DNA of 64,000 nucleotides from Eubacteriales bacterium (GCA_045542115.1 JAZQKK010000033.1:488-64487), one strand, 5' to 3'. Counted from the stretch's first letter, positions 21,352-37,915 are shown. Made by a program: numbers and translations. Notes: generated by a model not told the origin, from the letters alone.

Positions 21352-21507
21352 CTGACCTTATTAAATTATCCTTTCTAAAAAAGTGGATATCACCAAATTC
21401 ATTATAACTCATTTTTTCACTTTTGTAAAGAATCTTTGCGCAGATTACCAAAAAAAGAGGAAATTTCATATAATGGACAGAAAACGAGCAACGGGAGGGA
21501 CCTCACA

Positions 21508-22560
21508 TTGAACGGAACGACCATTAGAACCTTTCTGGGAGCAAACTCGGCAAAAGGATTTGCGTCGCTTTATCCTTCGTTTACCGAAAACAACCGCACT
21601 ATCATCATTAAGGGTGGGCCGGGAAGCGGAAAAAGCAGTATTATGAAAAGATTTGCAGCCAAGGCATTGAAAGAAAACTTCTTTGTAGAATATTGCTATT
21701 GCTCTTCCGATGCAGACTCCCTGGATGCAATCCGAATTCCGGAAAAATCTTTGTGCGTCGTCGATGGAACTGCACCCCACCTACTCGAACCACGATTTCC
21801 GGGCGCACACGATGAAATTTTCTACACAGGACAATTTTGGAATCGGGATACGTTAGAAAAATCATTCCCGGAAATTCAACAATTGACTCATCACATCAAA
21901 GGATGCTTCGCCCGAGCATACCGTTATCTTGCGGCCGCAGAAAAAACGGCAGATGATATCCGCGCTACGGCACTAAATAACGCACAAAAAGAAAAGCTTT
22001 GTAAATTTGCGCGGGATATGAGCAGGCGACTCATCCCCAGAAGAAACGGTTTCACCCTTTTGCGACCTCGATTTTTGAATTCTATCAGTCCCCAGGGATA
22101 CGTAATTGCCCGGGACACTGTTTATACCTTAGCGGAACGGGTTTTCGTTTTGGATGACCCCTATCGCATTTCCGATGTTTTTTTGGATGAACTAATGAAA
22201 AGCGCCGAAGACAGCGGCCAAGAAATCTATCTGTTTTACGACCCATTATGTCCGGATAAATTGCAGCATTTAGTCTTCCCTGAATGCGGGATTGCTTTTG
22301 TAACTGCAAACAAAACCTTCACATTTGAAGCGCAAAATGCATATAGAATTCATCTGGAACGCTTTTTAGATATCAATAATGATATTAAAAAAGTATGCCG
22401 CGTTGCCGAACAGCAAATTGATTTCTGTTACCAACAAGCGCTGTGTTCTTTGAAAAAAGAAAAAGCATACCACGACGATTTGGAAGAGTTTTATATTGAG
22501 GCAATGGATTTCAAAGGATTAAACAATTACGTTACTAAATTTATGAAGCAATTTTTCTGA
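21508..22560 (+). CDS. PRK06851-like P-loop ATPase
   Basis: FLGANSAKGF, KGGPGSGKS, CSSDADSLD, DGTAPH; start uncertain (TTG after GGGAGG). Confidence 0.7.
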   Translation: MNGTTIRTFLGANSAKGFASLYPSFTENNRTIIIKGGPGSGKSSIMKRFAAKALKENFFVEYCYCSSDADSLDAIRIPEKSLCVVDGTAPHLLEPRFPGAHDEIFYTGQFWNRDTLEKSFPEIQQLTHHIKGCFARAYRYLAAAEKTADDIRATALNNAQKEKLCKFARDMSRRLIPRRNGFTLLRPRFLNSISPQGYVIARDTVYTLAERVFVLDDPYRISDVFLDELMKSAEDSGQEIYLFYDPLCPDKLQHLVFPECGIAFVTANKTFTFEAQNAYRIHLERFLDINNDIKKVCRVAEQQIDFCYQQALCSLKKEKAYHDDLEEFYIEAMDFKGLNNYVTKFMKQFF

Positions 22561-22602: not shown

Positions 22603-23118
22603 TTAAAATCGTGTTCGGTATTGATATTGATTTCTTTTCCTTTTCTTGAACAGTTCCGGAAATTCTCGTTTTAATTTAAGATAATATACCGAAAACACTC
22701 CGGCCCAAATCAAAAAAATAAGGTGTTCTGCTAAAAGAAAGTACATCTGCCATCCGTTTGCGGAATTTATTATATCCAAGACGATCCAAACACTGTCCGC
22801 AATCCACAATCCGCAAATTGCCCAAATACACACGGCTTTTCCATTGCGTCGAAACAGAACAAGCAAAGTCAAAATCGTCAATATGACAAAAGAACTAAGA
22901 TAAATAAAATACAACCATCGGGTCGCGGCTAAATAATTTTCCGATAACCAATCTTCATTATACTCAGAATAGAGAAAAACCCATTTAAAGTAATAAACAC
23001 CAAAAAACGGCGGAAGATAATTCTGTGTAATCTGCCATATCAGCGTCATTACAAACGTAGATAGCAACGGATACGTGGATAAAAGCGAAAACAATTGTAA
23101 TTTTTGTTTTTGGGTCAT
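22603..23118 (-). CDS. Hypothetical membrane protein
   Basis: About four hydrophobic segments, GGAG RBS. Confidence 0.65.
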   Translation of the reverse strand: MTQKQKLQLFSLLSTYPLLSTFVMTLIWQITQNYLPPFFGVYYFKWVFLYSEYNEDWLSENYLAATRWLYFIYLSSFVILTILTLLVLFRRNGKAVCIWAICGLWIADSVWIVLDIINSANGWQMYFLLAEHLIFLIWAGVFSVYYLKLKREFPELFKKRKRNQYQYRTRF

Positions 23119-23131
23119 AATTTACTCCATT

Positions 23132-24283
23132 TTATTTCATTTCATTCTGCAAAAATGCCGTGAGTATCTTAGCACGCAAGGGAATGGATGAAACTTCAAT
23201 GTATTCTTTATTCGTATGGCAAAATCTTCCCACGCCACCCATTCCGCAAATCGACGGAACACCTGCCGCCTGGGTATAACAAGAATCCGAGCCGCCCCCA
23301 GATTCCACAGGGGTCAGACTGCCCAAATCATAATCCTTACAAACCTTTAACAACTTTTCAAACAACGCCAACGTTTCCGCATTTTTCACCATCGGGGGGC
23401 GTCTTGATTCAAACACGACCGAAGACTCCGTCCCTCTTACAAAACTTGTATTTACGATTTGTTTCACCGTTTCTTCGGCAGTCTCCATATCCTCGGGTCG
23501 CGGAACACGAACGTCAACCGACAACGTACAAGTATCCGGTATTACGTTAAAAGCAGAACCGCCTTCTACAATATTACAACTGTACGTAACACCGCCCACT
23601 TGACTTTTTTCTTGGAGCGCAACAATCTTATAGGCAGCCTCTTGAATCGGATTGCTGCACTGAAAATAGTGAATTCCGGAATGGCCGGAAACTCCGTGAA
23701 TCTCCATCTGGCACCGATAGACTCCCTTCCGAGAGATAACGACCTCATCGCTTTCCGTCGTTTCACAATTGATGGCATAGGGAAATCCCTTGGATTTATC
23801 CTCAAAAAAACGCATTTCCGCAGGGCCGCCCAAACGATTGGAAACCTCTTCGTCGGAAGTTAAAAGCAAGCGAATCTGTTTGGAATATCCACTGTCTTTC
23901 AAAGCTTTCATTGCCAACAATGCGATGGCAATTCCCCCTTTGCAATCAATCACCCCGGGAGCAATAATACGATCTTCCAAACACGTTACCGGGTTTGGAC
24001 CAAACAAACCGGGCTCGTGAACCGTATCGGTGTGACCCAAAAACAGACATCCCTTTTCCGAACCGGGATTCATATCAATCGTTAAAAAATCTCCGCAAGC
24101 ATCCATTGGAGTTCTCTCGACGACAAATCCTTGGGCAACCGCAAAATTTTCAATAAAATCCATCAATCGGTCGATGACCGCTTTATCCGTCGCTTGGGCT
24201 TCAAAGGAACAAATATCACACAAAAAATCGGTGAATTTTTCCACCTGTTCATCAACAATAGAAAATATTTCTCGAATCTCCAT
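23132..24283 (-). CDS. M20 family metallopeptidase/amidohydrolase (carboxypeptidase G2-like)
   Basis: GHTDTV, PGVIDCKGG, SDEE, GGGSD, HTNKE; start MEIRE after GGGGAG. Confidence 0.88.
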   Translation of the reverse strand: MEIREIFSIVDEQVEKFTDFLCDICSFEAQATDKAVIDRLMDFIENFAVAQGFVVERTPMDACGDFLTIDMNPGSEKGCLFLGHTDTVHEPGLFGPNPVTCLEDRIIAPGVIDCKGGIAIALLAMKALKDSGYSKQIRLLLTSDEEVSNRLGGPAEMRFFEDKSKGFPYAINCETTESDEVVISRKGVYRCQMEIHGVSGHSGIHYFQCSNPIQEAAYKIVALQEKSQVGGVTYSCNIVEGGSAFNVIPDTCTLSVDVRVPRPEDMETAEETVKQIVNTSFVRGTESSVVFESRRPPMVKNAETLALFEKLLKVCKDYDLGSLTPVESGGGSDSCYTQAAGVPSICGMGGVGRFCHTNKEYIEVSSIPLRAKILTAFLQNEMK

Positions 24284-24376
24284 CTTTTCTCCCCTTTTTT
24301 CAAGTATATCATACGTTGGTAAAAATGTCAAGACATTATCCACCCATCACGATTTGAATTCAAAGAAGAATTATAT

Positions 24377-24408
24377 ATGAAAGCAACAGGAATAGTTCGT
24401 AGAATCGA
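24377..24408 (+). pseudogene. Displaced 5' fragment of spoVT (copy 1, synonymous codon differences)
   Basis: ATGAAAGCAACAGGAATAGTTCGTAGAATCGA = MKATGIVRRI. Confidence 0.9.
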
Positions 24409-24424
24409 GGCTCGTGTTATAATT

Positions 24425-25219
24425 TTACTCCGCTTTTGTCATATAACAGTTCCGGTATTCTGTTGGTGACATCTGATAGTGCTTTTTGAACATTTTATTA
24501 AAATATATTGAGTCGCTGACGCCTACCTCTGCTGCTATTTGGTTAATGGACTTTGTCGTTCCTTGCAGTAGCTCTGCTGCTATGGACATCCGATAATTAT
24601 TAAGGAAACAAATCGGGGAAACGCCCATTTGTTTCTTAAAGACTGCAAACAAATGTGAAGTAGAAAGATGGGTTTTGTGTGCAATATCCTCGACCGATAT
24701 TTTTTCTCTGTAGTTATCTTTTATATAACGTAAGGCTTGCTCTATATATGGGGATGACGGCTGTTCTTTTTCATCTGCAACCAAAGAAAGAAGTTTGACT
24801 ATTTGATAATAATAAATAGATTCGTTAAAAGCATTATCTGTATCAAACAATCTGTCAAAAACCGAATTCATTTCTGCCTTGACTTCTTCCGGCAAAATTG
24901 TCGGAAAACTGAATTTTTCATCAAAATCATAAACATCGTTGATTTTGACTTTAATAAAAACCCAACGGCAGATCATACTTTTACTGGCGAGGTCTGTATT
25001 ATGTACAATGCGTTGGTATACGTTTGACGGGGCAATAAAAAAGCCGCCATTTCCTGTATTGTGCATCGCTCCGTTGTCAAGCTGAATGTCATACGACCCT
25101 TCAACTGCCTGCACAACTGATAAATATGGCAGCACCTTTGAGTGACAAGAACCGTCACACGTGGTAGAAGAAAAACCACTTTTATGGGCATATTCTATAT
25201 TGATTTTTCCAATATGCAT
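24425..25219 (-). CDS. AraC family transcriptional regulator
   Basis: C-terminal double HTH (LSTSHLFAVFKKQMG...YFNKMFKKHYQMSPTEYR). Confidence 0.92.
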   Translation of the reverse strand: MHIGKINIEYAHKSGFSSTTCDGSCHSKVLPYLSVVQAVEGSYDIQLDNGAMHNTGNGGFFIAPSNVYQRIVHNTDLASKSMICRWVFIKVKINDVYDFDEKFSFPTILPEEVKAEMNSVFDRLFDTDNAFNESIYYYQIVKLLSLVADEKEQPSSPYIEQALRYIKDNYREKISVEDIAHKTHLSTSHLFAVFKKQMGVSPICFLNNYRMSIAAELLQGTTKSINQIAAEVGVSDSIYFNKMFKKHYQMSPTEYRNCYMTKAE

Positions 25220-25310
25220 ATTCTCACCTCAATAGTATTATACCAAAAAATAGTATTATTGTCAATTGTTTATAATAGTTTTATTTGTTATAATTTAGTT
25301 GAGGTGATAG

Positions 25311-27446
25311 ATGATGGATTTTTTTGCAGTTAATGGAAAAAGACCGATAAGAATGAGTGAAGAAACAAGAAAATTTGCTTTTGATTCTTTAAATCATAAA
25401 TACGGCCTTGAAACCTGGAGTACGCCCGCTGTTTCAATGGACGATTATGAGGGGTTTGAGAATTTATCCCCACTTCAAAAATACGATGCGGCCATAGAGT
25501 GTATTGTAAAAACTGCACCTATTCGGATATGTGACGGAGAAAGAATCAGTGGTGCGGCAACTTTGGGACTTGCTATGACCCACCAAATCCCTGCTACATT
25601 TCATCGCGAACAAGGGATTTTCGGATCCATAAGTCATTTGACAATTGATTTTGAAACAGTAATCAAAAAAGGCATTAATCACATTCAAAAGCAAGCTGAA
25701 GAAAGCCTAAAAAACCACATAGGAACAGACAAAGAACCTTTTATACGGAGTTGTTTGCATTGCCTTGATTGTATGCGAATATGGCACGGGCGATATTTGA
25801 ACGCATTGCAAAACAAGCCTGGGTATCGTGCAAACTATGAGAATCTGCAACGTGTACCATTTGAACCGGCAAGAAATTTTTATGAAGCAGTACAAAGCAT
25901 TTGGTTCACTTTTGCGTTTGTTCGCCTTTGCGGAAATTGGACGGGAATTGGCAGAATTGACTGGCTTTTGGGCGACTATCTTGAAAATGATTTAACAAAC
26001 GGTGATTTGACCGTTGATGAGGCACGAGAAATATTGGCACACCTTTTTATTAAGGGTTGCGAATGGGTAAAAGGCGGCAACTATGGTTCCGGTGATGCTC
26101 AGCACTATCAGAATATCCTACTCGGTGGCGTTGATGAAAACGGTAACGGTGTCAACAATACAGTTACATACCTCGTGTTAGATATATTGGAAGAATTTGG
26201 AATAAGCGATTTCCCCACAACTGTACGTATCAACAAAAACACAGACGTCAAACTGTTAAATCGCATTTCAGAGGTTATACGATACGGTGGCGGTGTTATT
26301 GCCGTATATAACGAAGATTTGATTATAGAATCGCTTGTTGATTACGGATACGAACTTAGCGAGGCGAGAAAATTTGCCAATGACGGATGCTGGGAAATTC
26401 AAATACCTGGCAAAACATTTTTTACATATATCCCGTTTGATGCCTTGCAAATTTTGCAGCAAAACACGCTTGATAATTATAGCGGAAAGGTTAATTTTTC
26501 AGATTTTGATTCATTGTACAAAGTCTTTGTTAATGATTTAAAAAGCAAGGTTACAGACATTGTTGTTTCAAGAAATAAGAAATGTTTTATATATACCGCA
26601 GTGCCGAAAAAGGATTGGAAATGGAAACCGTCAACTCCGTGCACGGTAGTTTCTCTTTTTGAGCAGGGTTGCGTTGAAAATGGTCTCTCATACCTTGAAG
26701 GCGGACCGATTTATAATGTTGTTTCTCCCCATATCGGCGGCTTGCCGGATGTAGTTAACAATCTTTATGCAATTAAAAAGTTGGTATTCGATGAACAAAA
26801 AGTAACGTTTGAAGAACTTATGCAGTTGTTAAAAACCAATTGGGAAGATAACGAAGCACTTCGACAATATGCTCTTAATAAGTATCCTTATTTTGGAAAC
26901 GATAATGACGAAGTGGATAGCATTGCTAAAAATATCATAAGTGAATTCGCTGATATCTGCGACAATTTAGAAAGCGGATATAAAACCCCCGCAGGTGTCA
27001 GTACGTTTGGGCGACAATTAGAATGGTCCCGTCTGCGAATGGCAACCGCCTACGGCAAGAAAGCACACAACGTGTTAGCAGGAAACTTCTCGCCAACTCC
27101 CGGCACCGATAAAGAAGGGGCAACAGCTATTATCAAATCATATTGTAAGGTTGATCTAAAACAAACCGTATCGGGCGCAGCACTCGATATCAAATTGTTG
27201 CCGTCCTCTGTCAACGGTGAAAACGGCGTTGAGGCTATAAGTTCTTTGATTAAGGGTTTTGTTACACTTGGTGGGCATTTTATGCAGTTGGATATTGCCG
27301 ATACAGAGCTACTGAAAAAAGCACAAGAGCATCCGGAAGAATACCAAAATTTATCAGTGCGTGTGTCCGGTTGGAATGCTCGTTTTGTCACATTGAATCG
27401 GGAATGGCAGGATATGATTATCGCGCAGACAGGAAGTGAATTATGA
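25311..27446 (+). CDS. Glycyl radical enzyme (PFL-like family), function unknown
   Basis: GRIDWLL, Cys loop NDGCWE, Gly loop LSVRVSGWNARF. Confidence 0.92.
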   Translation: MMDFFAVNGKRPIRMSEETRKFAFDSLNHKYGLETWSTPAVSMDDYEGFENLSPLQKYDAAIECIVKTAPIRICDGERISGAATLGLAMTHQIPATFHREQGIFGSISHLTIDFETVIKKGINHIQKQAEESLKNHIGTDKEPFIRSCLHCLDCMRIWHGRYLNALQNKPGYRANYENLQRVPFEPARNFYEAVQSIWFTFAFVRLCGNWTGIGRIDWLLGDYLENDLTNGDLTVDEAREILAHLFIKGCEWVKGGNYGSGDAQHYQNILLGGVDENGNGVNNTVTYLVLDILEEFGISDFPTTVRINKNTDVKLLNRISEVIRYGGGVIAVYNEDLIIESLVDYGYELSEARKFANDGCWEIQIPGKTFFTYIPFDALQILQQNTLDNYSGKVNFSDFDSLYKVFVNDLKSKVTDIVVSRNKKCFIYTAVPKKDWKWKPSTPCTVVSLFEQGCVENGLSYLEGGPIYNVVSPHIGGLPDVVNNLYAIKKLVFDEQKVTFEELMQLLKTNWEDNEALRQYALNKYPYFGNDNDEVDSIAKNIISEFADICDNLESGYKTPAGVSTFGRQLEWSRLRMATAYGKKAHNVLAGNFSPTPGTDKEGATAIIKSYCKVDLKQTVSGAALDIKLLPSSVNGENGVEAISSLIKGFVTLGGHFMQLDIADTELLKKAQEHPEEYQNLSVRVSGWNARFVTLNREWQDMIIAQTGSEL

Positions 27447-28258
27447 TGCTTATCAGCGATATACAACGCTTTTGTATACACGACGGTCCCGGAATCAGAA
27501 CAACGGTGTTTTTCAAAGGCTGTCCGCTTCGCTGCGAGTGGTGTCACAATCCCGAAACGCAATGCCGTCAAAAAGAACTTTTGTTTTATAAAGAAAAGTG
27601 TATTGGGTGCGGAATTTGCGGAGTTTGTGATAACAAAACTTGTATTGTCTGCGGCGAGTGTGCCAAAAACTGTCCAACAGGTGCAAGAGAGGTTGCAGGA
27701 TATGAGTACACAGCACAAGAATTATACGACCAAATTCAAAGAGACATTGCTTTTTACGGTGAAAACGGTGGTGTCACCTTTTCGGGCGGCGAATGTATGA
27801 TGCAAATTGAACCATTGGCAGAAGTGCTTAAAATGTGCAAAGAAAAGGCTATACATACTGCTATTGACACCGCGGGCCACGTGCCGTTTGAGAATTTTCA
27901 AAAAATTCTGCCGTATACGGATATTTTTCTTTATGACATTAAAACCATTGATTCCGCAAAGCATAAACAATACACGGGTGTAGGGAATGAACAGATTTTA
28001 AACAACTTGAAAATGTTATTTAAAACCGGAATCACCATATGGATTCGCATTCCGATTATTCCTTCGGTTAATGATACGATAGAAGAAATGCAAAAAATAA
28101 AAGCTTTTTTGGATATGAGTGGTTCACCTGAAAAGATAGAATTGCTACCCTATCACCCAATGGGCGAGAGTAAAAATCAAGCACTTGGAAAATCTCAACG
28201 CACATTCAAAATTCCCGATCCCCCAAAAATGAAATTACTTAGAGAAATCTTCAAGTAA
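27443..28258 (+). CDS. Glycyl radical enzyme activating enzyme (radical SAM)
   Basis: HDGPGIRTTVFFKGCPLRCEWCHNPE, ferredoxin-like insert, GGVTFSGGE, ELLPYH. Confidence 0.95.
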   Translation: MMLISDIQRFCIHDGPGIRTTVFFKGCPLRCEWCHNPETQCRQKELLFYKEKCIGCGICGVCDNKTCIVCGECAKNCPTGAREVAGYEYTAQELYDQIQRDIAFYGENGGVTFSGGECMMQIEPLAEVLKMCKEKAIHTAIDTAGHVPFENFQKILPYTDIFLYDIKTIDSAKHKQYTGVGNEQILNNLKMLFKTGITIWIRIPIIPSVNDTIEEMQKIKAFLDMSGSPEKIELLPYHPMGESKNQALGKSQRTFKIPDPPKMKLLREIFK

Positions 28259-28264
28259 ACATAA

Positions 28265-28321
28265 GTATAAATCTCCTTGTTTTACACATAATAGTATCAC
28301 TATTACCAGAACAAGGAGATT
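28265..28321 (+). promoter_or_regulatory. Forespore sigma-G/F-type promoter plus RBS-pairing inverted repeat (cassette A right end)
   Basis: GTATA-17-CATAATA; AATCTCCTTGTT(28270-28281)/AACAAGGAGATT(28310-28321). Confidence 0.7.
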
Positions 28322-28330
28322 GATTTATAT

Positions 28331-28362
28331 ATGAAAGCAACAGGTATTGTACGTCGCATCGA
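28331..28362 (+). pseudogene. Displaced 5' fragment of spoVT (copy 2)
   Basis: 39-bp identity 28324-28362 with 35390-35428. Confidence 0.93.
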
Positions 28363-28462
28363 GGAATGTGTTATATTAGGACAAAAGTTGTCGAAACACA
28401 TAAACACTGGAGTTTTAGCAGTTTATGATTGGTCTTAATTTGCACAAAACAAATATTTACAT

Positions 28463-28496
28463 AGTAAAATCGAGGTGAATTCACCTCGATTTTACT
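28463..28496. terminator. Perfect 34-bp palindrome, probable terminator of araC
   Basis: AGTAAAATCGAGGTGAATTCACCTCGATTTTACT. Confidence 0.75.
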
Positions 28497-28502
28497 TATA
28501 GA

Positions 28503-29270
28503 TTAATAGGAATGTCTTGTCGGATCCGCAAGATATTCCCTGATGCATTTTCCTAGCTTTCTTTTAAATACTGTTCTGAAATAGCCTACATCTGTATAAC
28601 CGCAGCGGCAGCTAATTTCTTTTTGAGAAAAGTAACCTGTTTCTAAAAGTGATTTTGCGTACTGTATGCGTAGCGTTTCAAGATAGTCTTTGGGAGATGT
28701 GCCATATACCCGATTGAATTCCCGGCGATAGTAAGCAGGTGAAACACACGCCTGCATCGCCAAATTCTCTATTGAAAGTTCAGAGTTCCAAAAGTTTTGG
28801 CGCATATATTCGGCGGATTCTAAAATTCTGTTATCTTTTAAATTGGCGGTAAAACCAACATCGCGAGTAAGCTCGGATAAAATTTCATATACAACCGATG
28901 TGATGCGGTAGGTTGAACCGACATCATTTTCATATTTAATGGTTAATGCTTTTGTAAACAATACCTTGTATTTTTCAGCGTCAGGCACTTTATATACCTG
29001 AATTTCTTCCATTACGTAATTGAACATGTGAAAATGAATAACAAGGATATCCTCTTCCAAATTGTTTCGCTCATAAGCAACGCCTGCGGGAATGATGCAA
29101 ATACTTCCGGGCTCAAAGGAGATGGTTTTATTTTTGCATGTATATTTGCCCGGAGTTTTTAATCTTAATGTTATGGCAGAATAGGTGCGTGCCGATACAA
29201 AAACTTTTTCGCGTTTTTGATGATAGTTTAAAACATCGGTAACTGATATTGCAAGATTTTCGGGAAGCAT
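28503..29270 (-). CDS. AraC family transcriptional regulator
   Basis: Cupin-like N-terminus, VSPAYYRREFNRVYG...YFRTVFKRKLG HTH. Confidence 0.92.
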   Translation of the reverse strand: MLPENLAISVTDVLNYHQKREKVFVSARTYSAITLRLKTPGKYTCKNKTISFEPGSICIIPAGVAYERNNLEEDILVIHFHMFNYVMEEIQVYKVPDAEKYKVLFTKALTIKYENDVGSTYRITSVVYEILSELTRDVGFTANLKDNRILESAEYMRQNFWNSELSIENLAMQACVSPAYYRREFNRVYGTSPKDYLETLRIQYAKSLLETGYFSQKEISCRCGYTDVGYFRTVFKRKLGKCIREYLADPTRHSY

Positions 29271-29397
29271 TGTATCACCTCAAATGAATTATAACACTTA
29301 TTGTAGCGAAAGTCAAGTGTTTTATAGCGAAAAACGACTTGATTTATATCGAAATTTATATATAATTGAATTATAGTAATTTTTGAGGTGATAAAAA

Positions 29398-30735
29398 ATG
29401 AATTTTTGTTCTAACCCAACAGATTTAAAAATCACAGATATGCGTTTTGTCGATATCGACGGTGCGCCTAAAAGATGCACAATTCTGCGAATTGACACTA
29501 ACCAAGGCATAAGCGGTTTCGGTGAAGTTCGTGATGCATCTTCAAAGACTTATGCGCTTATGCTTAAAAGTCGTATTTTAGGTGAAAACCCTTGTAATGT
29601 AGATAAAATTTTTCGCAAGATTAAGCAGTTTGGCGGACCTTCACGTCAAGGCGGTGGTGTAAGCGGTATTGAAATTGCACTTTGGGATTTAGCAGGCAAG
29701 GCTTACGGAGTGCCTTTATATCAGTTGTTAGGCGGTAAGTTCCGTGATGAAATACGGGTTTATTGTGATACTGATGTTGACGGTAAGCATACAGGTCACG
29801 ATATGGGACTTGCCTTAAAGAAGAGAATGGATATGGGCTTTACATTCCTTAAAATGGATTTGGGTATTGGTCTTTTGCTGGATGAACCCGGAACACTTAA
29901 TGCACCCTTAGGCTTTATTGATGATATGAAGAAATATGCAAGTCATATTCTTAATGTTCAGGGCGGCAGTGTTACCGCAGATATGGTAAAGCATCAAAAG
30001 AGCTATTCTATTGTAACAACTGCACACCCTCATACCGGCATACACTTAACCGAAAAGGGTCTTGATTTCCTTGAAAACTATGTTAAAGAGGTAAGAGAAG
30101 TTATCGGCTACGAAGTGCCTTTAGCAATCGACCATTTCGGTCATATATGTGTTGAGGATTGTATCCGATTTGCTCGCAGAATGGAACCCTACAATCTTGC
30201 TTGGATTGAGGATATGGTGCCTTGGATGTATACCGACCAGTATGTAAGACTTAAAAATTCTACTACAATTCCTGTTTGCACAGGTGAGGATATTTATCTT
30301 AAAGAGGGATTTGAAACTCTTATTAAAGCAGGTGGTGTATCGGTAATTCACCCTGATATTTTAACTTGCGGCGGTGCTTTGGAGCTTAAGAAAATAGCTG
30401 ATATTGCCGATGAATACGGTGTTGCAACCGCAATACATATGGCAGAAAGTCCTGTTGCTTGTTTGGCGGCTGTTCACACTGCTGCAGCAATGCACAATGT
30501 TTTAGCACTTGAATTCCACTCGGTAGATGTTCCTTGGTGGGCAGATATGGTAACAGGAATTGAAAACCCGATATTTAAAGACGGATTCATAAAAGTTCCT
30601 GAAAAACCCGGTCTTGGTTTTGATGACCTTAATGAAGAAGTGTTAAGACAACACATCAATCCTAATATCCCCGGATATTTTGAGCCGACAGATGAATGGA
30701 ATAGGGAATTTTCAAACGATAGAATTTGGAGTTAG
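29398..30735 (+). CDS. Mandelate racemase/muconate lactonizing (enolase superfamily) enzyme, probable sugar-acid dehydratase
   Basis: SGIEIALWDLAGK, KMD, AIDH, WIED, TGED, HPD, LEFH. Confidence 0.88.
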   Translation: MNFCSNPTDLKITDMRFVDIDGAPKRCTILRIDTNQGISGFGEVRDASSKTYALMLKSRILGENPCNVDKIFRKIKQFGGPSRQGGGVSGIEIALWDLAGKAYGVPLYQLLGGKFRDEIRVYCDTDVDGKHTGHDMGLALKKRMDMGFTFLKMDLGIGLLLDEPGTLNAPLGFIDDMKKYASHILNVQGGSVTADMVKHQKSYSIVTTAHPHTGIHLTEKGLDFLENYVKEVREVIGYEVPLAIDHFGHICVEDCIRFARRMEPYNLAWIEDMVPWMYTDQYVRLKNSTTIPVCTGEDIYLKEGFETLIKAGGVSVIHPDILTCGGALELKKIADIADEYGVATAIHMAESPVACLAAVHTAAAMHNVLALEFHSVDVPWWADMVTGIENPIFKDGFIKVPEKPGLGFDDLNEEVLRQHINPNIPGYFEPTDEWNREFSNDRIWS

Positions 30736-30740
30736 TAGTA

Positions 30741-31379
30741 ATGTTTTGCGAGAAGAAATTTATTTCTAAAAAGCATTTAGGTGAACACTTAAATTTTTTG
30801 GAATATAATCCGTTTGATGATAAAAGCAAAAAACCATTGCTTATTTACATACATGGCGCTGGCAGTCGTGGTGATACTCTTTCAAAAATGGCTAATGTAG
30901 GACCTATAAAAGAGTTAAATGATGGCAGAAATATTGATGCGATAATCATTGCACCACAATGTCATAGCGATACATGGTTCGATTTGTTTTCTGTTTTAGC
31001 GGAATTTATAGAAGATTATAAAATCAGAGAAAACGTTGATGAAAGCAGAGTGTATATTACGGGTGTAAGTATGGGAGCCTACGCTACATGGCAAATGTGT
31101 ATATCTCATCCTGATTGGTTTGCTGCTGCGGTACCAGTTTGCGGTGGTGGAATGTATTGGAATGCTGCTCGACTCAAATATTTGCCAATATGGGCTTTTC
31201 ACGGTGCCTTAGATAATGTTGTATTTGCTGAAGAAAGCGTTGAAATGGTTTCCGCAATTAACAGCAATGGTGGAAATGCAAAACTAACAATTTTTTCTCA
31301 TGATAGTCATAATTCGTGGGATAATACATTTAGTAACGATGAGTTGTGGCAATGGTTGTTTGAACAAAAAAGGAGATAA
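30741..31379 (+). CDS. Alpha/beta hydrolase (esterase/peptidase-like)
   Basis: IHGAG, GVSMG nucleophile, FHGALD, HNSW. Confidence 0.85.
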   Translation: MFCEKKFISKKHLGEHLNFLEYNPFDDKSKKPLLIYIHGAGSRGDTLSKMANVGPIKELNDGRNIDAIIIAPQCHSDTWFDLFSVLAEFIEDYKIRENVDESRVYITGVSMGAYATWQMCISHPDWFAAAVPVCGGGMYWNAARLKYLPIWAFHGALDNVVFAEESVEMVSAINSNGGNAKLTIFSHDSHNSWDNTFSNDELWQWLFEQKRR

Positions 31380-31384
31380 GTTTT

Positions 31385-32299
31385 ATGAATTTTAATGATA
31401 GAGAAAAAATTATACAGTTAACACCTCTTTGGAAAGGGGAAAGACTTCCTGACGGCAGACCAAAGGTAGAGGATAAATATTTAGATGCACTTTATTGTAT
31501 GACTTTAGAGGAAGTTTGGAAGCCAATTTTTGTTCTCGGTTATGAGCATCAGTTTGTAGGTGGCGGTGAAAACCCGATGTTTGCCTTACATAACGACGAA
31601 AGAAAGCTTGTGGGTAGAGCGGTTACATGTACATACTGTCCTACCCGTCCCGATCTGCATTACGTACAGTTTGCTCGCGGTGCGGAGGACGGTCTGCAGG
31701 GCAACTATAATCAGTGGGTAATAGACCACCTATATGAGCGTGATGTAGTGGTTTGCGATATGTACGATAAAATTTATAAAGGCACATTTTTGGGCGGTAA
31801 TCTTACTACCGCTTTACAAAATCGCACGAAAAATGGCGGTGCAGTTGTTTGGGGCGGTATAAGAGATGTTGAACAAATGAAAAAAGTGCCTGATGTTCAG
31901 GTTTATTACCGTGGTATCGACCCAACACCCATACGTGAGTTTGTTATGAAGGATTGGAATGATATTACTAATTTCGGTGGTGCTGTTTGCTTGCCAGGTG
32001 ATATTGTATTCGGTGCAGGCGGCGGAGTGTTATTTATTCCGTCACATTTAGTTGCAGATGTTGTTGAAGGCGCGGCGAAGACCCACGTTAAAGACGATTT
32101 CGGCTTTGAAATGATTTGTCAGGGTAAGTTCACAACGGCTCAGATTGACCGCAACACCTGGAGTGAAGAAATGCTTGATATGTTGCTTGAGTGGATAAAG
32201 ACAGATCCAAGAGGTGAGGAATACCGTGACCTTGATTGGTCAAAGGAATATGACCTTGCAAGAAACGGTGACCCGGACGATACTCAGACAGCACTTTAA
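31385..32299 (+). CDS. RraA/HMG-aldolase family protein
   Basis: LVGRAVT, GGNL, WGGIRD, PGDIVFG. Confidence 0.8.
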   Translation: MNFNDREKIIQLTPLWKGERLPDGRPKVEDKYLDALYCMTLEEVWKPIFVLGYEHQFVGGGENPMFALHNDERKLVGRAVTCTYCPTRPDLHYVQFARGAEDGLQGNYNQWVIDHLYERDVVVCDMYDKIYKGTFLGGNLTTALQNRTKNGGAVVWGGIRDVEQMKKVPDVQVYYRGIDPTPIREFVMKDWNDITNFGGAVCLPGDIVFGAGGGVLFIPSHLVADVVEGAAKTHVKDDFGFEMICQGKFTTAQIDRNTWSEEMLDMLLEWIKTDPRGEEYRDLDWSKEYDLARNGDPDDTQTAL

Positions 32300-32313
32300 T
32301 TGGAGTTATAGAT

Positions 32314-32868
32314 ATGGAAAAATATATACCTGTAGTAGTTATAAAAGAACTCAGCGAAACAGATAAAATTTTAACTGCACTTAAAAATAACGGCATTAAC
32401 TGTGCGGAGATTACTTTCCGTACCGCTTGTGCCAAAGAGGCAATAGAATATGCTTGTAAGAACTATCCTGAAATGTCTATCGGTGCAGGTACAGTTATTA
32501 ATGCAAAGCAGTGCGAGGATGCATTAGAAGCAGGTGCGCAGTTTATTGTGTCACCCGGTCTTTCTGTGTCAGTCGCAAACATTTGTAATGAAAGAAATAT
32601 ACCTTATTATCCCGGTTGTGTAACACCGACAGAAATTATGCAGGCGTTAGAATTGGGTATTACCACAGTTAAGTTTTTCCCTGCAAACGTTTACGGCGGT
32701 CTTAAGGCGCTTAAAACTCTTTCAGCACCTTTCCCGCAGGTTAAATTCATTCCTACGGGCGGGGTAGACCGAAGCAATATTGACGAATTTTTAGCATTTG
32801 ATAAAATTGCGGCTATCGGTGGTAGCTTCTTTGTAAAAGAAGCACTTGAAAAGATGGGAGAAAACTAA
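32314..32868 (+). CDS. eda: KDPG/KHG aldolase
   Basis: EITFRT, GAGTV, FIVSPG, VKFFPA, IPTGG. Confidence 0.9.
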   Translation: MEKYIPVVVIKELSETDKILTALKNNGINCAEITFRTACAKEAIEYACKNYPEMSIGAGTVINAKQCEDALEAGAQFIVSPGLSVSVANICNERNIPYYPGCVTPTEIMQALELGITTVKFFPANVYGGLKALKTLSAPFPQVKFIPTGGVDRSNIDEFLAFDKIAAIGGSFFVKEALEKMGEN

Positions 32869-32869
32869 T

Positions 32870-33892
32870 ATGGCAAGAGTAGTTACTTTCGGAGAGTTAA
32901 TGTTAAGACTTGCTCCTAACGGATATTATAGATTTTTCCAAAACGACCAAATGCAGGCAACCTTCGGCGGCGGTGAAGCTAATGTTGCAGTAAGTCTTGC
33001 AAACTATGGAATGGATAGCGTTTATGTAACTAAATTACCTAAACACGCTATCGGTCAGGCTGCGGCAGACAGTCTTCGTTATTTCGGCGTTGATACCTCT
33101 AAAATCGTTCGTGGCGGTGAAAGAGTAGGCATTTACTATCTTGAAAAAGGCGCTTCACAGAGAGGCTCAGTTTGTATATATGACCGCAAGTATTCTGCCA
33201 TTCAGCAGGCAACAACTGAAGATTTTGATTGGGATAGCATTTTTGATGGTGCAGATTGGTTCCATTTTACAGGAATTACTCCCGCTTTAGGCGAAAATGT
33301 AGTAGAAATCTGTAAAGAGGCTTGTATAAAAGCAAAAGAAAAGGGAGTTAAAATATCCTGTGACTTAAATTACAGAGGTAAGCTCTGGACAAGGGAAGAA
33401 GCAAACAAAGCTATGACCGAATTATGCCAATATGTAGATGTTTGCATCTCTAACGAAGAAGATGCAAAGGATGTATTCGGCATTGAGGCAGAGGGCACAG
33501 ATATTTATGGTGGTAAACTAAACCATAAGGGGTACAAGTCTGTAGCAAAGCAGTTAGCTGATAAATTTGGTTTCGAAAAGGTAGCTATAACACTTAGAAC
33601 CTCAATTTCTGCTAATGATAATGATTGGGCAGGTATGCTTTACGACGGAGAGGATTACTATTTCTCAAAGTCTTATCATTTGCATATAGTTGACCGTGTT
33701 GGCGGTGGTGACTCTTTCGGCGGCGGACTGATTTATTCGTTACTTAGCGGTAAATCTTCAAAAGAAGCTATTGAATTTGCAGTTGCAGCATCTGCGCTTA
33801 AACACACCGTTGAGGGTGACTACAACCGTGTATCCGTTTCTGAGGTTGAAAAACTTGCAGGCGGAGATGGAAGCGGTAGAGTGCAAAGGTAA
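32870..33892 (+). CDS. kdgK: 2-keto-3-deoxygluconate kinase (PfkB family)
   Basis: FGELMLRL, GGGEANVA, DLNYR, DRVGGGDSF. Confidence 0.85.
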   Translation: MARVVTFGELMLRLAPNGYYRFFQNDQMQATFGGGEANVAVSLANYGMDSVYVTKLPKHAIGQAAADSLRYFGVDTSKIVRGGERVGIYYLEKGASQRGSVCIYDRKYSAIQQATTEDFDWDSIFDGADWFHFTGITPALGENVVEICKEACIKAKEKGVKISCDLNYRGKLWTREEANKAMTELCQYVDVCISNEEDAKDVFGIEAEGTDIYGGKLNHKGYKSVAKQLADKFGFEKVAITLRTSISANDNDWAGMLYDGEDYYFSKSYHLHIVDRVGGGDSFGGGLIYSLLSGKSSKEAIEFAVAASALKHTVEGDYNRVSVSEVEKLAGGDGSGRVQR

Positions 33893-33902
33893 AGGTGATA
33901 AA

Positions 33903-34631
33903 ATGAAGACAGCATTTGTGACAGGCTCTTCAATGGGAATAGGCAGAGCTATAGCTATAAGATTAGCACAGGATGGATATAAAGTTATTGTTCACGGCGC
34001 AAAAAACATAGCAAAAGCCAACGAAACCAAACAAATAATTGAACAAAACGGCGGAGTGGCGGAAGTGATTGTTTCCGATTTGACTGACATTGAGAAAACC
34101 CGTGAGCTTTGTGAAATGGTTAAAGAAACGGATGTACTTATATTAAATGCATCTCTCCAGTACCGCACACCATGGCAAGAAATAACAATAAAGGCTTGCT
34201 ATGAACAACTCAACTGCAATTTTGTTTCAAGTATGATGTTAATTCAAGCTGTAGCCGATAATATGAAGAAAAAAGGTTGGGGAAGAATTGTGACTATAGG
34301 CTCTGTTCAGGAAGCGAAGCCTCACCCCGATATGCTTGTATATTCGGCGAGTAAAGCGGCGCAAACAAATATGATGAAATCGCTTTCTCTTCAACTAGCA
34401 AAGGATGGAATTACTGTTAATAATGTAGCTCCGGGTGTGATTTATACTAATAGAAATGTTGAAGCACTCAGTGACCCCGAATACGCTAAAAAGGTTACGG
34501 ATAGTATTCCTGTTGGTTTTTATGGTGAACCCGAAGACTGCGCAGGAATAGTCAGTCTTTTGTGTAGTGATGAGGGAAGATATATAACCGGTCAGAATAT
34601 TTTTGTTGATGGGGGAAAAAGCGTACAATGA
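33903..34631 (+). CDS. Short-chain dehydrogenase/reductase
   Basis: TGSSMGIG, YSASK; start MKTAFV after AAGGTG. Confidence 0.92.
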   Translation: MKTAFVTGSSMGIGRAIAIRLAQDGYKVIVHGAKNIAKANETKQIIEQNGGVAEVIVSDLTDIEKTRELCEMVKETDVLILNASLQYRTPWQEITIKACYEQLNCNFVSSMMLIQAVADNMKKKGWGRIVTIGSVQEAKPHPDMLVYSASKAAQTNMMKSLSLQLAKDGITVNNVAPGVIYTNRNVEALSDPEYAKKVTDSIPVGFYGEPEDCAGIVSLLCSDEGRYITGQNIFVDGGKSVQ

Positions 34632-35314
34632 CAATAAGGTTTTTAGGTCAAAGCGGTTATATTATCAAAACCAAAAAAGCAGAAATAATGATAGACCCGT
34701 ATCTTTCTGATAGTGTTAATCGTGTTGCAGGAAGACCGCGCACTTTACCCATACCGATTAACCCTCAAAATATATCTTGTGAAGCAGTGATATGCACCCA
34801 CAATCATCTGGACCACTTAGATCCCGATACGGTAGCACAAATAAACGATGAACAATTTTTTATCACCACAAATGAGGGTAAAATAGAGCTGAATCAACTT
34901 GGCAAGGATCATGTTGTTTCGTTAAACGTTGGCGAAAGTACAGTTGTAGGCGACGTCGAAATAACCGCTGTTTTTGCTGATCATACTGTAGAGGCTTTTG
35001 GTTTAATTGTTAAAGCCGAAAATAAAACCTTATATTTCAGTGGAGATACTATATACAACGAAAAACTGTTTGATATTGCAAAATACCATCCTGACATTAC
35101 ATTGATTTGTATAAACGGCAGACTTGGAAATATGAATGTAAAAGAAGCGTTAATGACTGCAAAAAGAATTGGAGCAAAAATAAATATTCCCAATCATTAT
35201 GATATGTTTGCTTCAAATTCTGAAAATCCGCGCACATTTACTAATCAAATCGCAAATGGATTTATTATGGAATTTAATAAAGAGTATGATGTTCTGAATA
35301 TTTTAAAGACATAA
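34628..35314 (+). CDS. Metallo-beta-lactamase fold hydrolase (UlaG-like lactonase)
   Basis: IDPYLS, THNHLDH, FSGDT, PNHYDMF. Confidence 0.85.
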   Translation: MTIRFLGQSGYIIKTKKAEIMIDPYLSDSVNRVAGRPRTLPIPINPQNISCEAVICTHNHLDHLDPDTVAQINDEQFFITTNEGKIELNQLGKDHVVSLNVGESTVVGDVEITAVFADHTVEAFGLIVKAENKTLYFSGDTIYNEKLFDIAKYHPDITLICINGRLGNMNVKEALMTAKRIGAKINIPNHYDMFASNSENPRTFTNQIANGFIMEFNKEYDVLNILKT

Positions 35315-35332
35315 ATAAAAAACATATTTGAA

Positions 35333-35391
35333 GCATAAATCTCCTTGTTTTACAGATACTAACAGTACAAATTTGTAAAGCGAGGAGTTTT
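35333..35391 (+). promoter_or_regulatory. Forespore sigma-G/F-type promoter plus RBS-pairing inverted repeat (cassette B right end, drives spoVT)
   Basis: GCATA-17-GATACTA; AAATCTCCTTGTTTTACA pairs with TGTAAAGCGAGGAGTTTT. Confidence 0.7.
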
Positions 35392-35396
35392 TATAT

Positions 35397-35939
35397 ATGA
35401 AAGCAACAGGTATTGTACGTCGCATCGACGATTTGGGACGTATTGTTATTCCCAAGGAAATTCGAAAAACGATGCACATTCGGGAAGGGGCGCAATTGGA
35501 GATTTTCACCGACAGTGAAGGGGGCGTTATTTTTAAAAAGTACTCTCCCATCGGTGAATTGGACGAATCGGTGGCAGATTACGCGGAAACAGTAGCAAAA
35601 ATCACCGGAAATACCGTTGTGGTAACCGATAAAGATACGGTAATTGCCGCGGCCGGAAACAACCGTCGAGAACTTCTCCATAAACGTATTTCTTCCGAAA
35701 CAGAAGAATTGATGGAACAACGCCGTCAATACGTTTACAAAATCGGAGAAGATCGAAAACCCATTTGTAAAGAATTGGAAAAAGCGTATGCCGGTATCGT
35801 CAACCCGATTTTGTTGGAAGGAGACGCCGTAGGAGCCATTATTATGCTGATTCCCGAAATGGGAAATGCACCGGGAGAAGCAGATGTAAAAGTTTTAGCC
35901 GCCGCCACTCAAATTTTGGGAAAACAAATTGAAACGTAA
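35397..35939 (+). CDS. spoVT: Stage V sporulation protein T (AbrB domain + GAF)
   Basis: MKATGIVRRIDDLGRIVIPKEIR...KKYSPIGEL; 180 aa. Confidence 0.95.
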   Translation: MKATGIVRRIDDLGRIVIPKEIRKTMHIREGAQLEIFTDSEGGVIFKKYSPIGELDESVADYAETVAKITGNTVVVTDKDTVIAAAGNNRRELLHKRISSETEELMEQRRQYVYKIGEDRKPICKELEKAYAGIVNPILLEGDAVGAIIMLIPEMGNAPGEADVKVLAAATQILGKQIET

Positions 35940-35940
35940 C

Positions 35941-35970
35941 AAAAGACCGCCAAGTTTGGCGGTCTTTTTT
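35941..35970. terminator. Bidirectional intrinsic terminator
   Basis: AAAAGACCGCCAA-GT-TTGGCGGTCTTTTTT. Confidence 0.85.
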
Positions 35971-35971
35971 C

Positions 35972-36277
35972 TTAGGTCTCCTCTGCTTCAAGCAAAAAAC
36001 TGACGGGGCGAAATCCGTCGTTACAAGAAATCATTGCGGAATTTTTATTCTTCATCCAACCGTCATAAAAATCGCCGCCTCCGTAAGCAAGGGTCATCAC
36101 AAAGGGATACATACATTCCCAAGCCGCGGAACACAACCCTTCCGGACGTGTCAAATCTTTTGAGATAAAAACCTCCCCTATTTTCATCTCACAAGCGTGT
36201 TCTATGGGGTTTTCGTACAACTCCATCAAGTCGGGATAAACCGAACGCCGCATTACCGTAATCTTTACATTTTTCAT
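35972..36277 (-). CDS. TIGR04076-like conserved protein
   Basis: PEGLCSAAW, ISCNDGFRPVSFLLE. Confidence 0.75.
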   Translation of the reverse strand: MKNVKITVMRRSVYPDLMELYENPIEHACEMKIGEVFISKDLTRPEGLCSAAWECMYPFVMTLAYGGGDFYDGWMKNKNSAMISCNDGFRPVSFLLEAEET

Positions 36278-36404
36278 AGCGAACCCACCCTTCTTCATCC
36301 TGTTTTTTATTATACTATCAAAAATCGGTTTTGTCAATCTCCATTCTTGACAAAACCGATAAAAAATGATAAAATTATGTTGTTATAAAAGAGAGGATTA
36401 CATT

Positions 36405-37196
36405 ATGAGAAAACCGCTTCACATCGCAATCATTGTTGGGCCGGAACAAATTGCCGCCATATCTCGCACAATGAAAATGTACGTCGGAATCAACAATGTA
36501 CTTGCATCTGTAAACCCGGGAGACTTGCTTCCCATTGCCGAGAAACTTTCACCCAAAGCGTTGATTATCGACCCGGAACTTCTTTGTGATTGTGATATGA
36601 CTCCACAGGATATTTTGACAATGAAGAGGCAGTATCGTTTTAAAATCGTTACCCTCTCACAAGAACCACCAAACAGACAGGTCCGCTCTCTTATTGATCA
36701 GTTATGTCCGGAGAAAGAATACGTCGCTCCAACGGAATATTTAACGATGGCAACGGAACTTCCGGAGCTTACTCTTACAAAATATGTGAAACGAAAAGAA
36801 CTTCGCTTACTGCAAACCCAAGAAAATATAGATGCAATTTTCAGGGAGTGCGGATTTCATTGTGATACGAAGGGTTTTGTATTTTTAAAAGAAGCCATTT
36901 ATATGATTTTGTTGAACCCGGACTTATTACGCTGGGGCGGCGGCAAGTTTATATACAAGACCCTTTCCGAGAAGTACGGAGACTCCCCGCGAATTGTTGC
37001 CCGTTCGATGATTCGCTTTTTGGAATTATCAATGTCTCCGGAAACGGAAAAACAATTCCGAAAGAAATTGCAAATTCCCGAACGAACCGAATTATTCCCA
37101 CTCAGCTTTTTCCGTTTTACCGGTATTTTTACTGCATATTATGCCGGGGTGTACGAAGACCCAAGTCAACCCATTAAATACCCGAGAAAACGTTAA
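36405..37196 (+). CDS. Spo0A-like protein: degenerate receiver + Spo0A C-terminal DNA-binding domain
   Basis: KGFVFLKEAIYM...IYKTLSEKYGDSPRIVARSMIR resembles Spo0A C-domain; GAGG RBS. Confidence 0.65.
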   Translation: MRKPLHIAIIVGPEQIAAISRTMKMYVGINNVLASVNPGDLLPIAEKLSPKALIIDPELLCDCDMTPQDILTMKRQYRFKIVTLSQEPPNRQVRSLIDQLCPEKEYVAPTEYLTMATELPELTLTKYVKRKELRLLQTQENIDAIFRECGFHCDTKGFVFLKEAIYMILLNPDLLRWGGGKFIYKTLSEKYGDSPRIVARSMIRFLELSMSPETEKQFRKKLQIPERTELFPLSFFRFTGIFTAYYAGVYEDPSQPIKYPRKR

Positions 37197-37912
37197 CCGA
37201 TTTCCTTCAGACGCTCTTTGAGGTTGCTCAGTATCTTCTTTTCCAAGCGGGATATGTACGATTGCGATATTCCAAGAAGGTCGGCAACCTCTTTTTGCGT
37301 ATAGGTTCTCCCTCCGGAAAAGCCGTATCGCAATTCAATGATTTTTCTTGACCGCTGAGATAATTTCCCCACCTCAGCCTTTAACAGTGCGGCCTCGTCT
37401 TCTCGTTCAATCTCTTTCCCCACTTCGTCGCCCCCGGAATCCAAAACGTCACTGAGCAACAATTCGTTTCCGTCCCAATCAATGTTCAGAGGTTCTTCAA
37501 TAGAGACTTCATTTCGAAGGTTTCCGGTTTTTCGCAGATACATCAATATTTCATTCTCAATACAACGGGACGCATAGGTGGCTAATTTAATGTTTTTCCC
37601 GGGACAATACGTATTCACCGCTTTTATTAAACCAATCGTTCCAATAGAAATAAGGTCTTCAATGGAGCAAGACAGGGTTGAGATTTCAAATTTTCGTGCA
37701 ATGTAAACCACAAGTCGAAGATTATGCTCAATTAAAGTATCCCGGGCAGATACGTCTCCCGTAATCAAACGTGACACCATCGTTTGCTCTTCTTCCGGTG
37801 AGAGCGGAACGGGAAGAATATCACTTCCGTTGATGTAAAACAAACCGTTTTCTTCCAAAGGATGCTTTCGAAAAAAGTCAGTGAGTTTTCGCAAAAACTG
37901 TTCAAGATTCAT
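37193..37912 (-). CDS. sigE: Sporulation sigma factor E (pro-sigma-E)
   Basis: YINGSDILPVPL, KLATYASRCIENEILMYLR, EPLNIDWDGNELLLSDVL. Confidence 0.95.
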   Translation of the reverse strand: MNLEQFLRKLTDFFRKHPLEENGLFYINGSDILPVPLSPEEEQTMVSRLITGDVSARDTLIEHNLRLVVYIARKFEISTLSCSIEDLISIGTIGLIKAVNTYCPGKNIKLATYASRCIENEILMYLRKTGNLRNEVSIEEPLNIDWDGNELLLSDVLDSGGDEVGKEIEREDEAALLKAEVGKLSQRSRKIIELRYGFSGGRTYTQKEVADLLGISQSYISRLEKKILSNLKERLKEIG

Positions 37913-37915
37913 CTG

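Follow-up and report, generated by a model that had tools for sequence, protein, structure and literature searches.

In staphylococci, SCCmec, pseudo-SCC elements and composite islands of the staphylococcal cassette chromosome (SCC) occupy rlmH (orfX) and are moved by the serine recombinases CcrAB or CcrC. ICESt1 and ICESt3 of Streptococcus thermophilus are integrative and conjugative elements (ICEs) beside which cis-mobilizable elements (CIMEs) are stacked, units that are flanked by attachment (att) sites, lack recombination and transfer genes and are thought to be mobile by way of a distal att. Other conjugative ICEs of streptococci have three tandem serine recombinases and integrate gene-specifically (accessible part of PMC4701971), and sporulation genes have intervening elements of their own, skin in sigK, SPbeta in spsM and gin in gerE (accessible parts of PMC5595907, PMC4191935, PMC5499854 and PMC5025042). 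The locus compared with them here is the sporulation gene spoVT in 64,000 nucleotides of DNA from Eubacteriales bacterium (GCA_045542115.1 JAZQKK010000033.1:488-64487; 'the window' is this whole stretch), where two tandem units of cargo genes stand in front of the intact gene. We consider it probable that codon 11 of spoVT is the chromosomal attachment site (attB) of a family of serine-recombinase ICEs, and that the units in the window are recombinase-less satellites produced by accretion and resolution.

A degenerate pattern for MKATGIVRRI(D/E), the start of SpoVT, matches the window at 24377, 28331 and 35397, each time on the + strand and against none expected from 100 shuffles of the window, and has no further match in the rest of this 1.93-Mb genome of 37 contigs. 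What is repeated three times is the first 32 nt of spoVT. Only copy 3 (35397-35939) continues as full-length SpoVT, a 180-aa ORF with Pfam SpoVT_C and an AbrB-type N-domain whose top NCBIfam match is spore_V_T at 194 bits, below the cut-off of 236; copies 1 and 2 run for 30 and 35 codons before a stop. Copies 2 and 3 are identical over 39 bases (TTTATAT plus the 32 nt) and copy 1 departs from them at third codon positions only. Both truncated copies break after ...ATCGA and continue with related sequence, GGCTCGTGTTATAAT and GGAATGTGTTATATT, with TATAAT or TATATT. The units delimited in this way, cassette A of 3954 bp and cassette B of 7066 bp, lie in DNA with a G+C content of 0.36-0.43 (24-36 kb) between flanks mostly at 0.44-0.50, and the intact gene has at the break a dyad, CGTCG-CAT-CGACG, at 35417-35433, and a nested dyad spanning 35415-35439. 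Among the ORFs of the two cassettes Pfam and NCBIfam find regulator and catabolic genes, with no match to recombinase, transposase, relaxase or phage families; DDE, HUH and IS110-type enzymes were scanned for inside the window only. A first-pass annotation made from the sequence had reported the three starts, their differences and common break, two AT-rich units of about 4.0 and 7.1 kb with such cargo and without integrase, transposase, relaxase or phage gene, and the dyad, and every element of that description is correct. To it can be added a further promoter block of ~21 nt upstream that copies 2 and 3 have in common.

The polarity of insertion is visible in relatives. Same-genus genomes have one spoVT with a 171-aa gene (window 22603-23118) immediately upstream, so ~12.3 kb (23121-35392) is extra in the window. 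Two genomes of genus g139 have an empty site and two have a single 1192-bp cassette; in the latter the promoter known from the empty-site genomes stands before the leftmost truncated copy, and a foreign one before the intact copy. A cassette is thus made up of a left end, its cargo and a right end that holds a promoter, a ribosome-binding site (RBS) and the first 32 nt of spoVT. Each unit inserts at one fixed base of spoVT with a replacement promoter and 5′ end, and because these are its own the site is regenerated and spoVT left intact, the native promoter being displaced leftwards to decay, as upstream of copy 1 in the window. The right-end promoters of the window cassettes resemble forespore sigma-F/G promoters. 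The first-pass annotation had proposed that site-specific cassettes repair spoVT in this manner and keep the site reusable; the comparison with g139 and other relatives supports this as regards the anatomy. As to where the right arm comes from, those of cassettes from four other families are closest to the native promoter found in the window's genus (85-93% over 60-117 nt) in a comparison with 29 loci that is biased in that 19 are from the window's own family, which suggests capture from a host locus.

Cassettes are widespread. The spoVT start pattern is present in 331 of 401 genomes of the order and a junction-specific pattern in 60, its reversed control giving 4 matches; on manual reading of 91 listed matches ~51 genomes are genuine and nine others hold only a different AbrB-type gene. 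Five tandem copies in G048 and two each in G053 and G047 were seen among 61 relatives, and the largest arrays have six copies (G173) or five (G048, G410 and G363). From the loci fetched, 53 complete cassettes of 839-12059 bp could be delimited, 41 of which break at nt 32 and 12 near nt 100, a second site returned to below. Cargo differs from cassette to cassette and includes regulators, catabolic enzymes, membrane proteins and restriction- or defence-like genes, often as a single gene with many cassettes of just 0.84-1.6 kb, while the ends are uniform, ~125 nt on the left and ~110 nt plus the 32 nt on the right. Across different families the interiors of cassettes can be 86-96% identical, as against just 71-78% for spoVT within the window's genus, so the cassettes move horizontally. 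The cargo of the window cassettes has only gene-level relatives of 65-89% in 296 genomes, never as the same cassette beside spoVT. The search of relatives that the first-pass annotation proposed thus found repeated starts upstream of spoVT in about 51 genomes, with varying cassette number and cargo, and the fixed gene content that would have spoken against its proposal was not seen. At about one in eight sampled genomes, codon 11 of spoVT is a hot spot for gene gain in an order of gut spore-formers. For annotation, the 'AbrB family' ORFs of 20-60 codons upstream of spoVT are junction relics, not genes. Contigs end 0.3-2 kb from a junction in many relatives' assemblies, which suggests population heterogeneity or repeats at the locus, and of 20 stretches requested downstream of a junction nine reached a contig end within ~0.3-3.8 kb, making it a frequent assembly breakpoint.

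The enzymes that probably use the site are seen in relatives. In G412, an IMG/VR record that matches the junction pattern, truncated spoVT (443-474) gives way to a typical left end, behind which lies a conjugation module encoding a VirB4-like ATPase and a coupling protein (T4CP). The same VirB4/T4CP module follows a truncated copy in G185 and, behind one ordinary cassette, in G343, the sole array of cassette and ICE found; in G359 a ParA-led element follows a truncated copy with a variant of the left end. In G343 and G185 the remainder of spoVT is on a separate contig, and directly before it are three tandem genes for proteins of 528-575 aa with Resolvase and Recombinase domains and in most cases Zn_ribbon_recom, domains confirmed for five of the proteins. 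Orthologues of the third recombinase (at least 42% identity) are found in seven of the 401 genomes (G343, G185, G273, G403, G251, G324 and G014), a count for which three candidates per genome were scored and which may miss some, and all seven triplets abut the spoVT remainder at the same GA. G054 has this right-arm junction on a short contig that does not hold the recombinase, giving eight relatives with GA as the ICE junction; a distant triplet in G255 (35% identity) is sited away from spoVT. Versions with a recombinase, which the first-pass annotation had suggested looking for, thus exist, with the genes at the element end by the junction in seven relatives and not in the window.

The right junction of the ICE reads ...TTGACA, 6 nt, GA and then spoVT from nt 33, so its likely crossover coincides with the base where the nt-32-site cassettes break. 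MKATGIVRRI is not restored by the ICE: the sole SpoVT match in ICE genomes begins at residue 7-8, and a TTG start would give MT(Q/R)x-DDLGR... in six of eight genomes, with a stop in the other two. A spoVT that is restored only by excision is accordingly the condition of the ICE-bearing relatives and not of the window. Away from spoVT, the conjugation module is also present in G048:C8 (L099-L101), downstream of a lysyl-tRNA synthetase-like gene, and in G255:C1 (L102-L104, L116), where a 278-aa tyrosine recombinase-like ORF follows it and a separate recombinase triplet lies ~85 kb on; integration modules seem to have been swapped within the ICE family.

The site itself can be narrowed considerably. 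In G267 the 32-mers on either side of one cassette show differences as far as nt 30 (ATTGA versus ATCGA) and the sequences after GA are unrelated, so the common core is at most GA, which alone recurs at every type of junction. Large serine recombinases cross over at a core of 2 bp. A short 2-bp core within imperfect dyad symmetry is what the spoVT site offers, with the position of crossover read from sequence, and all 41 nt-32-site cassettes examined break at that same base, which coincides with the ICE crossover. Over ~125 nt the left ends of cassettes can be aligned with those of ICEs, both after the same GA, as expected of satellites bounded by att sites. Three features, the GA core, the nested dyad and the serine recombinase genes at the junction, fit a large serine recombinase as the probable enzyme. 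TATAAT is 9 nt from the crossover in the ICE left arm and TTGACA 6 nt from it in the right arm, and the attP deduced for each of the four genomes in which both arms were read has TTGACA-17 nt-TATAAT across the junction, often with a TG extension. A consensus promoter would then be complete only in the excised ICE circle, the TATAAT that is invariant among cassette left ends being its -10 half.

The proposed sequence of events starts with GA at nt 31-32, in codon 11, as attachment site for conjugative elements that would integrate by means of three tandem large serine recombinases encoded at their right end. The ICE alone disrupts spoVT. A cassette combines an ICE-type left arm with a right arm that copies a spoVT promoter and the first 32 nt, so that every leftward junction is attL-like and the rightmost is again an intact spoVT and a probable working attB, into which an incoming ICE could integrate. 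Excision of that ICE by a distal attL could carry cassettes to a new host; excision by the proximal attL would leave them behind and spoVT intact. The right arm may have been captured by unequal exchange or homology-facilitated illegitimate recombination after ICE insertion, though this is a guess. In Bacillus spoVT is a forespore gene. The ICE splits a gene with, in Bacillus, that expression, so excision in the mother cell in the manner of skin would not help. For an essential developmental gene, an insert that brings promoter, RBS and first ten codons is an uncommon route to harmless 5′-end insertion. The tie between orphan cassettes and a serine recombinase triplet with a defined attB and a deduced attP may also interest collectors of site-specific integrases.

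With SCC the spoVT arrays have in common large serine recombinases, insertion at an invariant position within the end of a conserved gene, a restored coding end that regenerates the site and tandem arrays that include recombinase-less units. Unlike SCC, it is the 5′ end of the gene that is targeted, so that the unit must bring promoter and start codon; the parent is a conjugative element with three recombinases that does not repair the gene by itself; and the hosts are spore-forming gut Clostridia with metabolic, defence-like or membrane-protein cargo. The likeness to CIMEs is in the flanking att sites, the absence of recombination and transfer genes and the stacking beside an ICE, but CIME systems rely on tyrosine integrases and have their identity segments at the fda 3′ end, and we know of no CIME arrays of four or five units or with right arms of promoter and 5′ coding sequence. 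Like gin, as described in the accessible part of PMC5595907, the ICE at spoVT is a non-phage element with three serine recombinase genes inside a sporulation gene; intervening elements in the accessible sources split their gene and are excised in the mother cell, whereas spoVT cassettes leave it intact without excision. The streptococcal triplet ICEs, in what is accessible of PMC4701971, have other hosts and target genes, and recombinase-less cassette arrays are not seen there. spoVT has no mention in the accessible text of PMC5595907, and no description of it as an attachment site was found in the literature covered, outside which are subscription journals and supplements; supplements to surveys of serine recombinases might list it. 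The first-pass annotation had not recognized a described system. That judgement needs amending to the extent that a three-recombinase conjugative element of relatives has this site and left end, and accretion at an ICE att site is a known principle, one that the annotation itself had cited.

It had also called the array integron-like. The arrays do recall integrons in being ordered series of small and variable cassettes, mostly of one gene each, at a single reusable site, but the spoVT locus is not an integron: the arrays are without IntI, attI, Pc and folded attC, and the cassettes bring their own regulators and promoters. PF00589 is absent from the array contigs of G000, G048, G173, G410, G363 and G356, with no IntI-type tyrosine recombinase accompanied by attI and Pc, and RNAalifold predicts no pairs for 42 left ends, the only ends folded. 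PF00239 likewise matches neither the window contig nor any array contig of the other five genomes. Tblastn with six serine and two tyrosine recombinases gave no match in the 53 complete cassettes. By these scans and the Pfam results for the window, the units lack recombination and transfer genes of their own, as do CIMEs and pseudo-SCC elements. A tyrosine recombinase was set aside as the enzyme, with none on the array contigs or the contigs with intact or remaining spoVT in ten genomes. The tyrosine integrase of G412 was not retained either, since it is in mid-record with flanking inverted repeats of its own. This integrase, of 380 aa at 25.6-27.1 kb (L075 ~5630-7090), lies between perfect inverted repeats of ~27 bp and could be part of an invertible or self-contained module.

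Other candidates were likewise dropped. For a left end that encodes a structured or guide RNA (bridge-RNA, IS110-like or riboswitch), Rfam at a permissive E-value gave only terminator look-alikes (23500-36500), IS110-type recombinase families not being searched, and the idea was given up because the split promoter accounts for TATAAT. The left-end motif has no occurrence outside arrays in G000 and five other genomes. A Xer/dif-like site was considered because one codon variant resembles an arm of Bacillus dif; other variants lack the likeness and the spacing is unfit. Phage and plasmid collections yielded short matches to the spoVT or abrB start only, with the exception of the viral-collection record G412, from which the ICE was traced.

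Several observations weigh against satellites of an ICE. The right arm of the ICE is unlike that of the cassettes, so the ICE as seen would leave the spoVT-type right arm unexplained, and the comparison on which capture of that arm is based has 19 of its 29 loci in the window's own family. Only one array (G343) has both cassette and ICE. No complete ICE is on a single contig, the left and recombinase parts in G343 and G185 being on different contigs; that they are one element is argued because spoVT is split and the promoter halves match. The window genome has no close orthologue of the triplet (best match 31-33% identity), and with three candidates scored per genome the recombinase is present in only ~6 of the ~51 array genomes, so most arrays are not movable now by a resident enzyme; that of the window is probably static until an ICE arrives. 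For an excised circle or empty site of the window array, the best public sequencing run shares 0.17 of its words, and the four runs examined hold contigs of related organisms (88-95% likeness) in which the joints are matches between repeats of other cassettes. No remnant of an ICE core gene is found in any of the 53 cassettes, a poor fit to random decay of ICEs, and cassettes regarded simply as such decayed ICEs were rejected on this ground. Being uniform, often limited to one gene and free of ICE remnants, the cassettes resemble purpose-built units more than debris.

That last aspect is the strength of a reading we hold to be rather unlikely, in which single-cassette circles with an attL-type site, composed of a spoVT-like arm, GA and an ICE-type left arm, are inserted into spoVT by a recombinase acting in trans, with products equal to substrates, making it the serine-recombinase counterpart of an integron. 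The discrete cassettes, many of one gene and 0.84-1.6 kb, with uniform ends and never an ICE core remnant, suit it well, as do one clean insertion of a single cassette relative to an empty site (g139) and arrays ~7 times commoner than the recombinase (~51 versus 7 of 401 genomes). But attL-type by attB is not a known reaction of large serine recombinases without special factors, no circle junction has been observed, with no public run holding the window's array, no recombinase is linked to arrays in six genomes scanned, and cassettes riding with an ICE explain the data equally well. If it were true, and visiting ICEs supplied the recombinases that capture and release cassettes singly, gut spore-formers would gain a shelf of exchangeable metabolic and defence genes at no cost to sporulation, with the split promoter reporting excision. 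Homologous or homology-facilitated recombination, with conserved ends and spoVT as portable homology by which incoming DNA, for example from an ICE-bearing chromosome, swaps or adds cassettes much as orphan toxin-immunity modules accumulate behind rhs and cdi, seems to us improbable as the source of the arrays. The ends are long enough to serve, the 32-mers flanking a cassette in G406 differ at one base only, suggesting conversion between repeats, and the presence of one cargo gene in both nt-32-site and nt-100-site cassettes (89% over 713 nt) requires recombination inside cassettes. Against it stands the break of all 41 nt-32-site cassettes examined at the identical base, which is that of the ICE crossover; a first insertion into an empty site would have just 32 nt and a divergent promoter as left homology; and the left end is the arm of the ICE, not chromosomal sequence. 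Joining, by way of the repeat, of strain variants with different inserts upstream of spoVT into an artefactual array is very hard to credit, even though the 37-contig genome looks like a metagenome-assembled genome and the contig ends so near the junctions of relatives mark the locus as hard to assemble. What speaks against it is that copies 2 and 3 are exact repeats over no more than 39 bp and a separate block of ~21 nt, that copy 1 is different from either, that the left ends at the junctions are distinct, that ~51 genomes belonging to many families show this architecture and that a related nt-100 form is present in the finished record of a cultured isolate.

Table. Features of the spoVT locus in window coordinates
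Feature	Position	Strand	Remarks
Native spoVT promoter and ribosome-binding region, displaced and decayed, in front of copy 1	24290-24376	+	..CATCACGATTTGA..AAGAAG..TATAT block of same-genus native promoters kept; -35/-10 part diverged
Truncated spoVT 5′ copy 1, B arm of attL-type junction	24377-24408	+	Putative GA crossover dinucleotide 24407-24408
Cassette A remnant left end (P′ arm)	24409-24424	+	TATAAT 24418-24423; ~16 of ~125 nt left
Cassette A AraC-family regulator, 264 aa	24425-25219	-	Pfam HTH_18, HTH_AraC
Cassette A glycyl-radical enzyme, 711 aa	25311-27446	+	Pfam PFL-like, Gly_radical; NCBIfam matches all below cut-offs
Cassette A glycyl-radical enzyme activase, 271 aa	27443-28258	+	Pfam Radical_SAM, Fer4; NCBIfam TIGR02494, 306 bits (cut-off 174)
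Cassette A right end	28259-28330	+	Putative forespore-type promoter: GTATA 28265-28269, 17-nt spacer, CATAATA 28287-28293; RBS
Truncated spoVT 5′ copy 2	28331-28362	+	GA 28361-28362
Cassette B full-length left end (P′ arm)	28363-28500	+	TATATT 28372-28377; ..CATAAACACTGG..; terminator-like hairpin 28463-28496; alignable with 41 further left ends, ICE left ends among them
Cassette B AraC-family regulator, 255 aa	28503-29270	-	
Cassette B seven-gene sugar-acid catabolic operon	29398-35314	+	Pfam and NCBIfam
Enolase-superfamily dehydratase (cassette B)	29398-30735	+	
Esterase (cassette B)	30726-31379	+	
RraA-like (cassette B)	31385-32299	+	
Eda aldolase (cassette B)	32314-32868	+	Sole one of the seven with NCBIfam score above cut-off
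KDG-type kinase (cassette B)	32846-33892	+	
SDR (cassette B)	33771-34631	+	
MBL-fold hydrolase (cassette B)	34628-35314	+	
Cassette B right end, now upstream of spoVT as its promoter	35315-35396	+	Putative forespore-type promoter: GCATA 35333-35337, 17-nt spacer, GATACTA 35355-35361; RBS; block common to copy 2
Intact spoVT, 180 aa, putative regenerated attB	35397-35939	+	GA 35427-35428 in nested dyad ACGTC-GC-ATCG-A-CGAT-TTGG-GACGT

The glycyl-radical enzyme of cassette A has equivalog scores far under their cut-offs, and its alignment to the family model begins at about position 154, leaving it ~150 N-terminal residues short of characterised dehydratases and lyases. To the left of the cassettes, a gene for an M20/M25/M40 peptidase (23132-24343, - strand) lies between the 171-aa gene and the displaced promoter and is extra with respect to same-genus genomes; it has no bounding spoVT copy and could represent an insertion of earlier date or a gene specific to the lineage. 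A gene for an nSTAND3-type NTPase is at 21436-22560. Just past spoVT (36366-38746) are genes for a 276-aa protein that weakly matches Spo0A_C, for a sigma factor of the sigma-70 family and for a SpoIIGA peptidase, which places the island in a neighbourhood of sporulation genes.

The second family of cassettes breaks near nt 100 of spoVT after ..GGNGA(C/G)CC and leaves ORFs of 41-81 codons annotated as small AbrB-family proteins (L048-L051, L045, L046, L053, L056 and L058); its conserved left end is different, ..ACATTGACACC... Cultured Vescimonas fastidiosa MM35 (NZ_AP023416.1 815385-828484) has a 60-aa copy, and a 12.4-kb catabolic island that includes GntR and TetR regulators separates it from the intact spoVT downstream. 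In G359:C122 (L120, 1981-4137) a single large serine recombinase ORF reads through the nt-100 junction into the remainder of spoVT, the 718-aa frame having Pfam Resolvase, Recombinase, zinc ribbon and SpoVT_C together, which makes the second site, too, a target of serine recombinases; on a different contig G359 also carries a left junction of the nt-32 type. The cargo gene found in both types of cassette encodes 229 aa and is in an nt-100-site cassette of G079 (L045) and an nt-32-site cassette of G088 (L079), genomes of different families, so cargo has been exchanged between the two cassette families.

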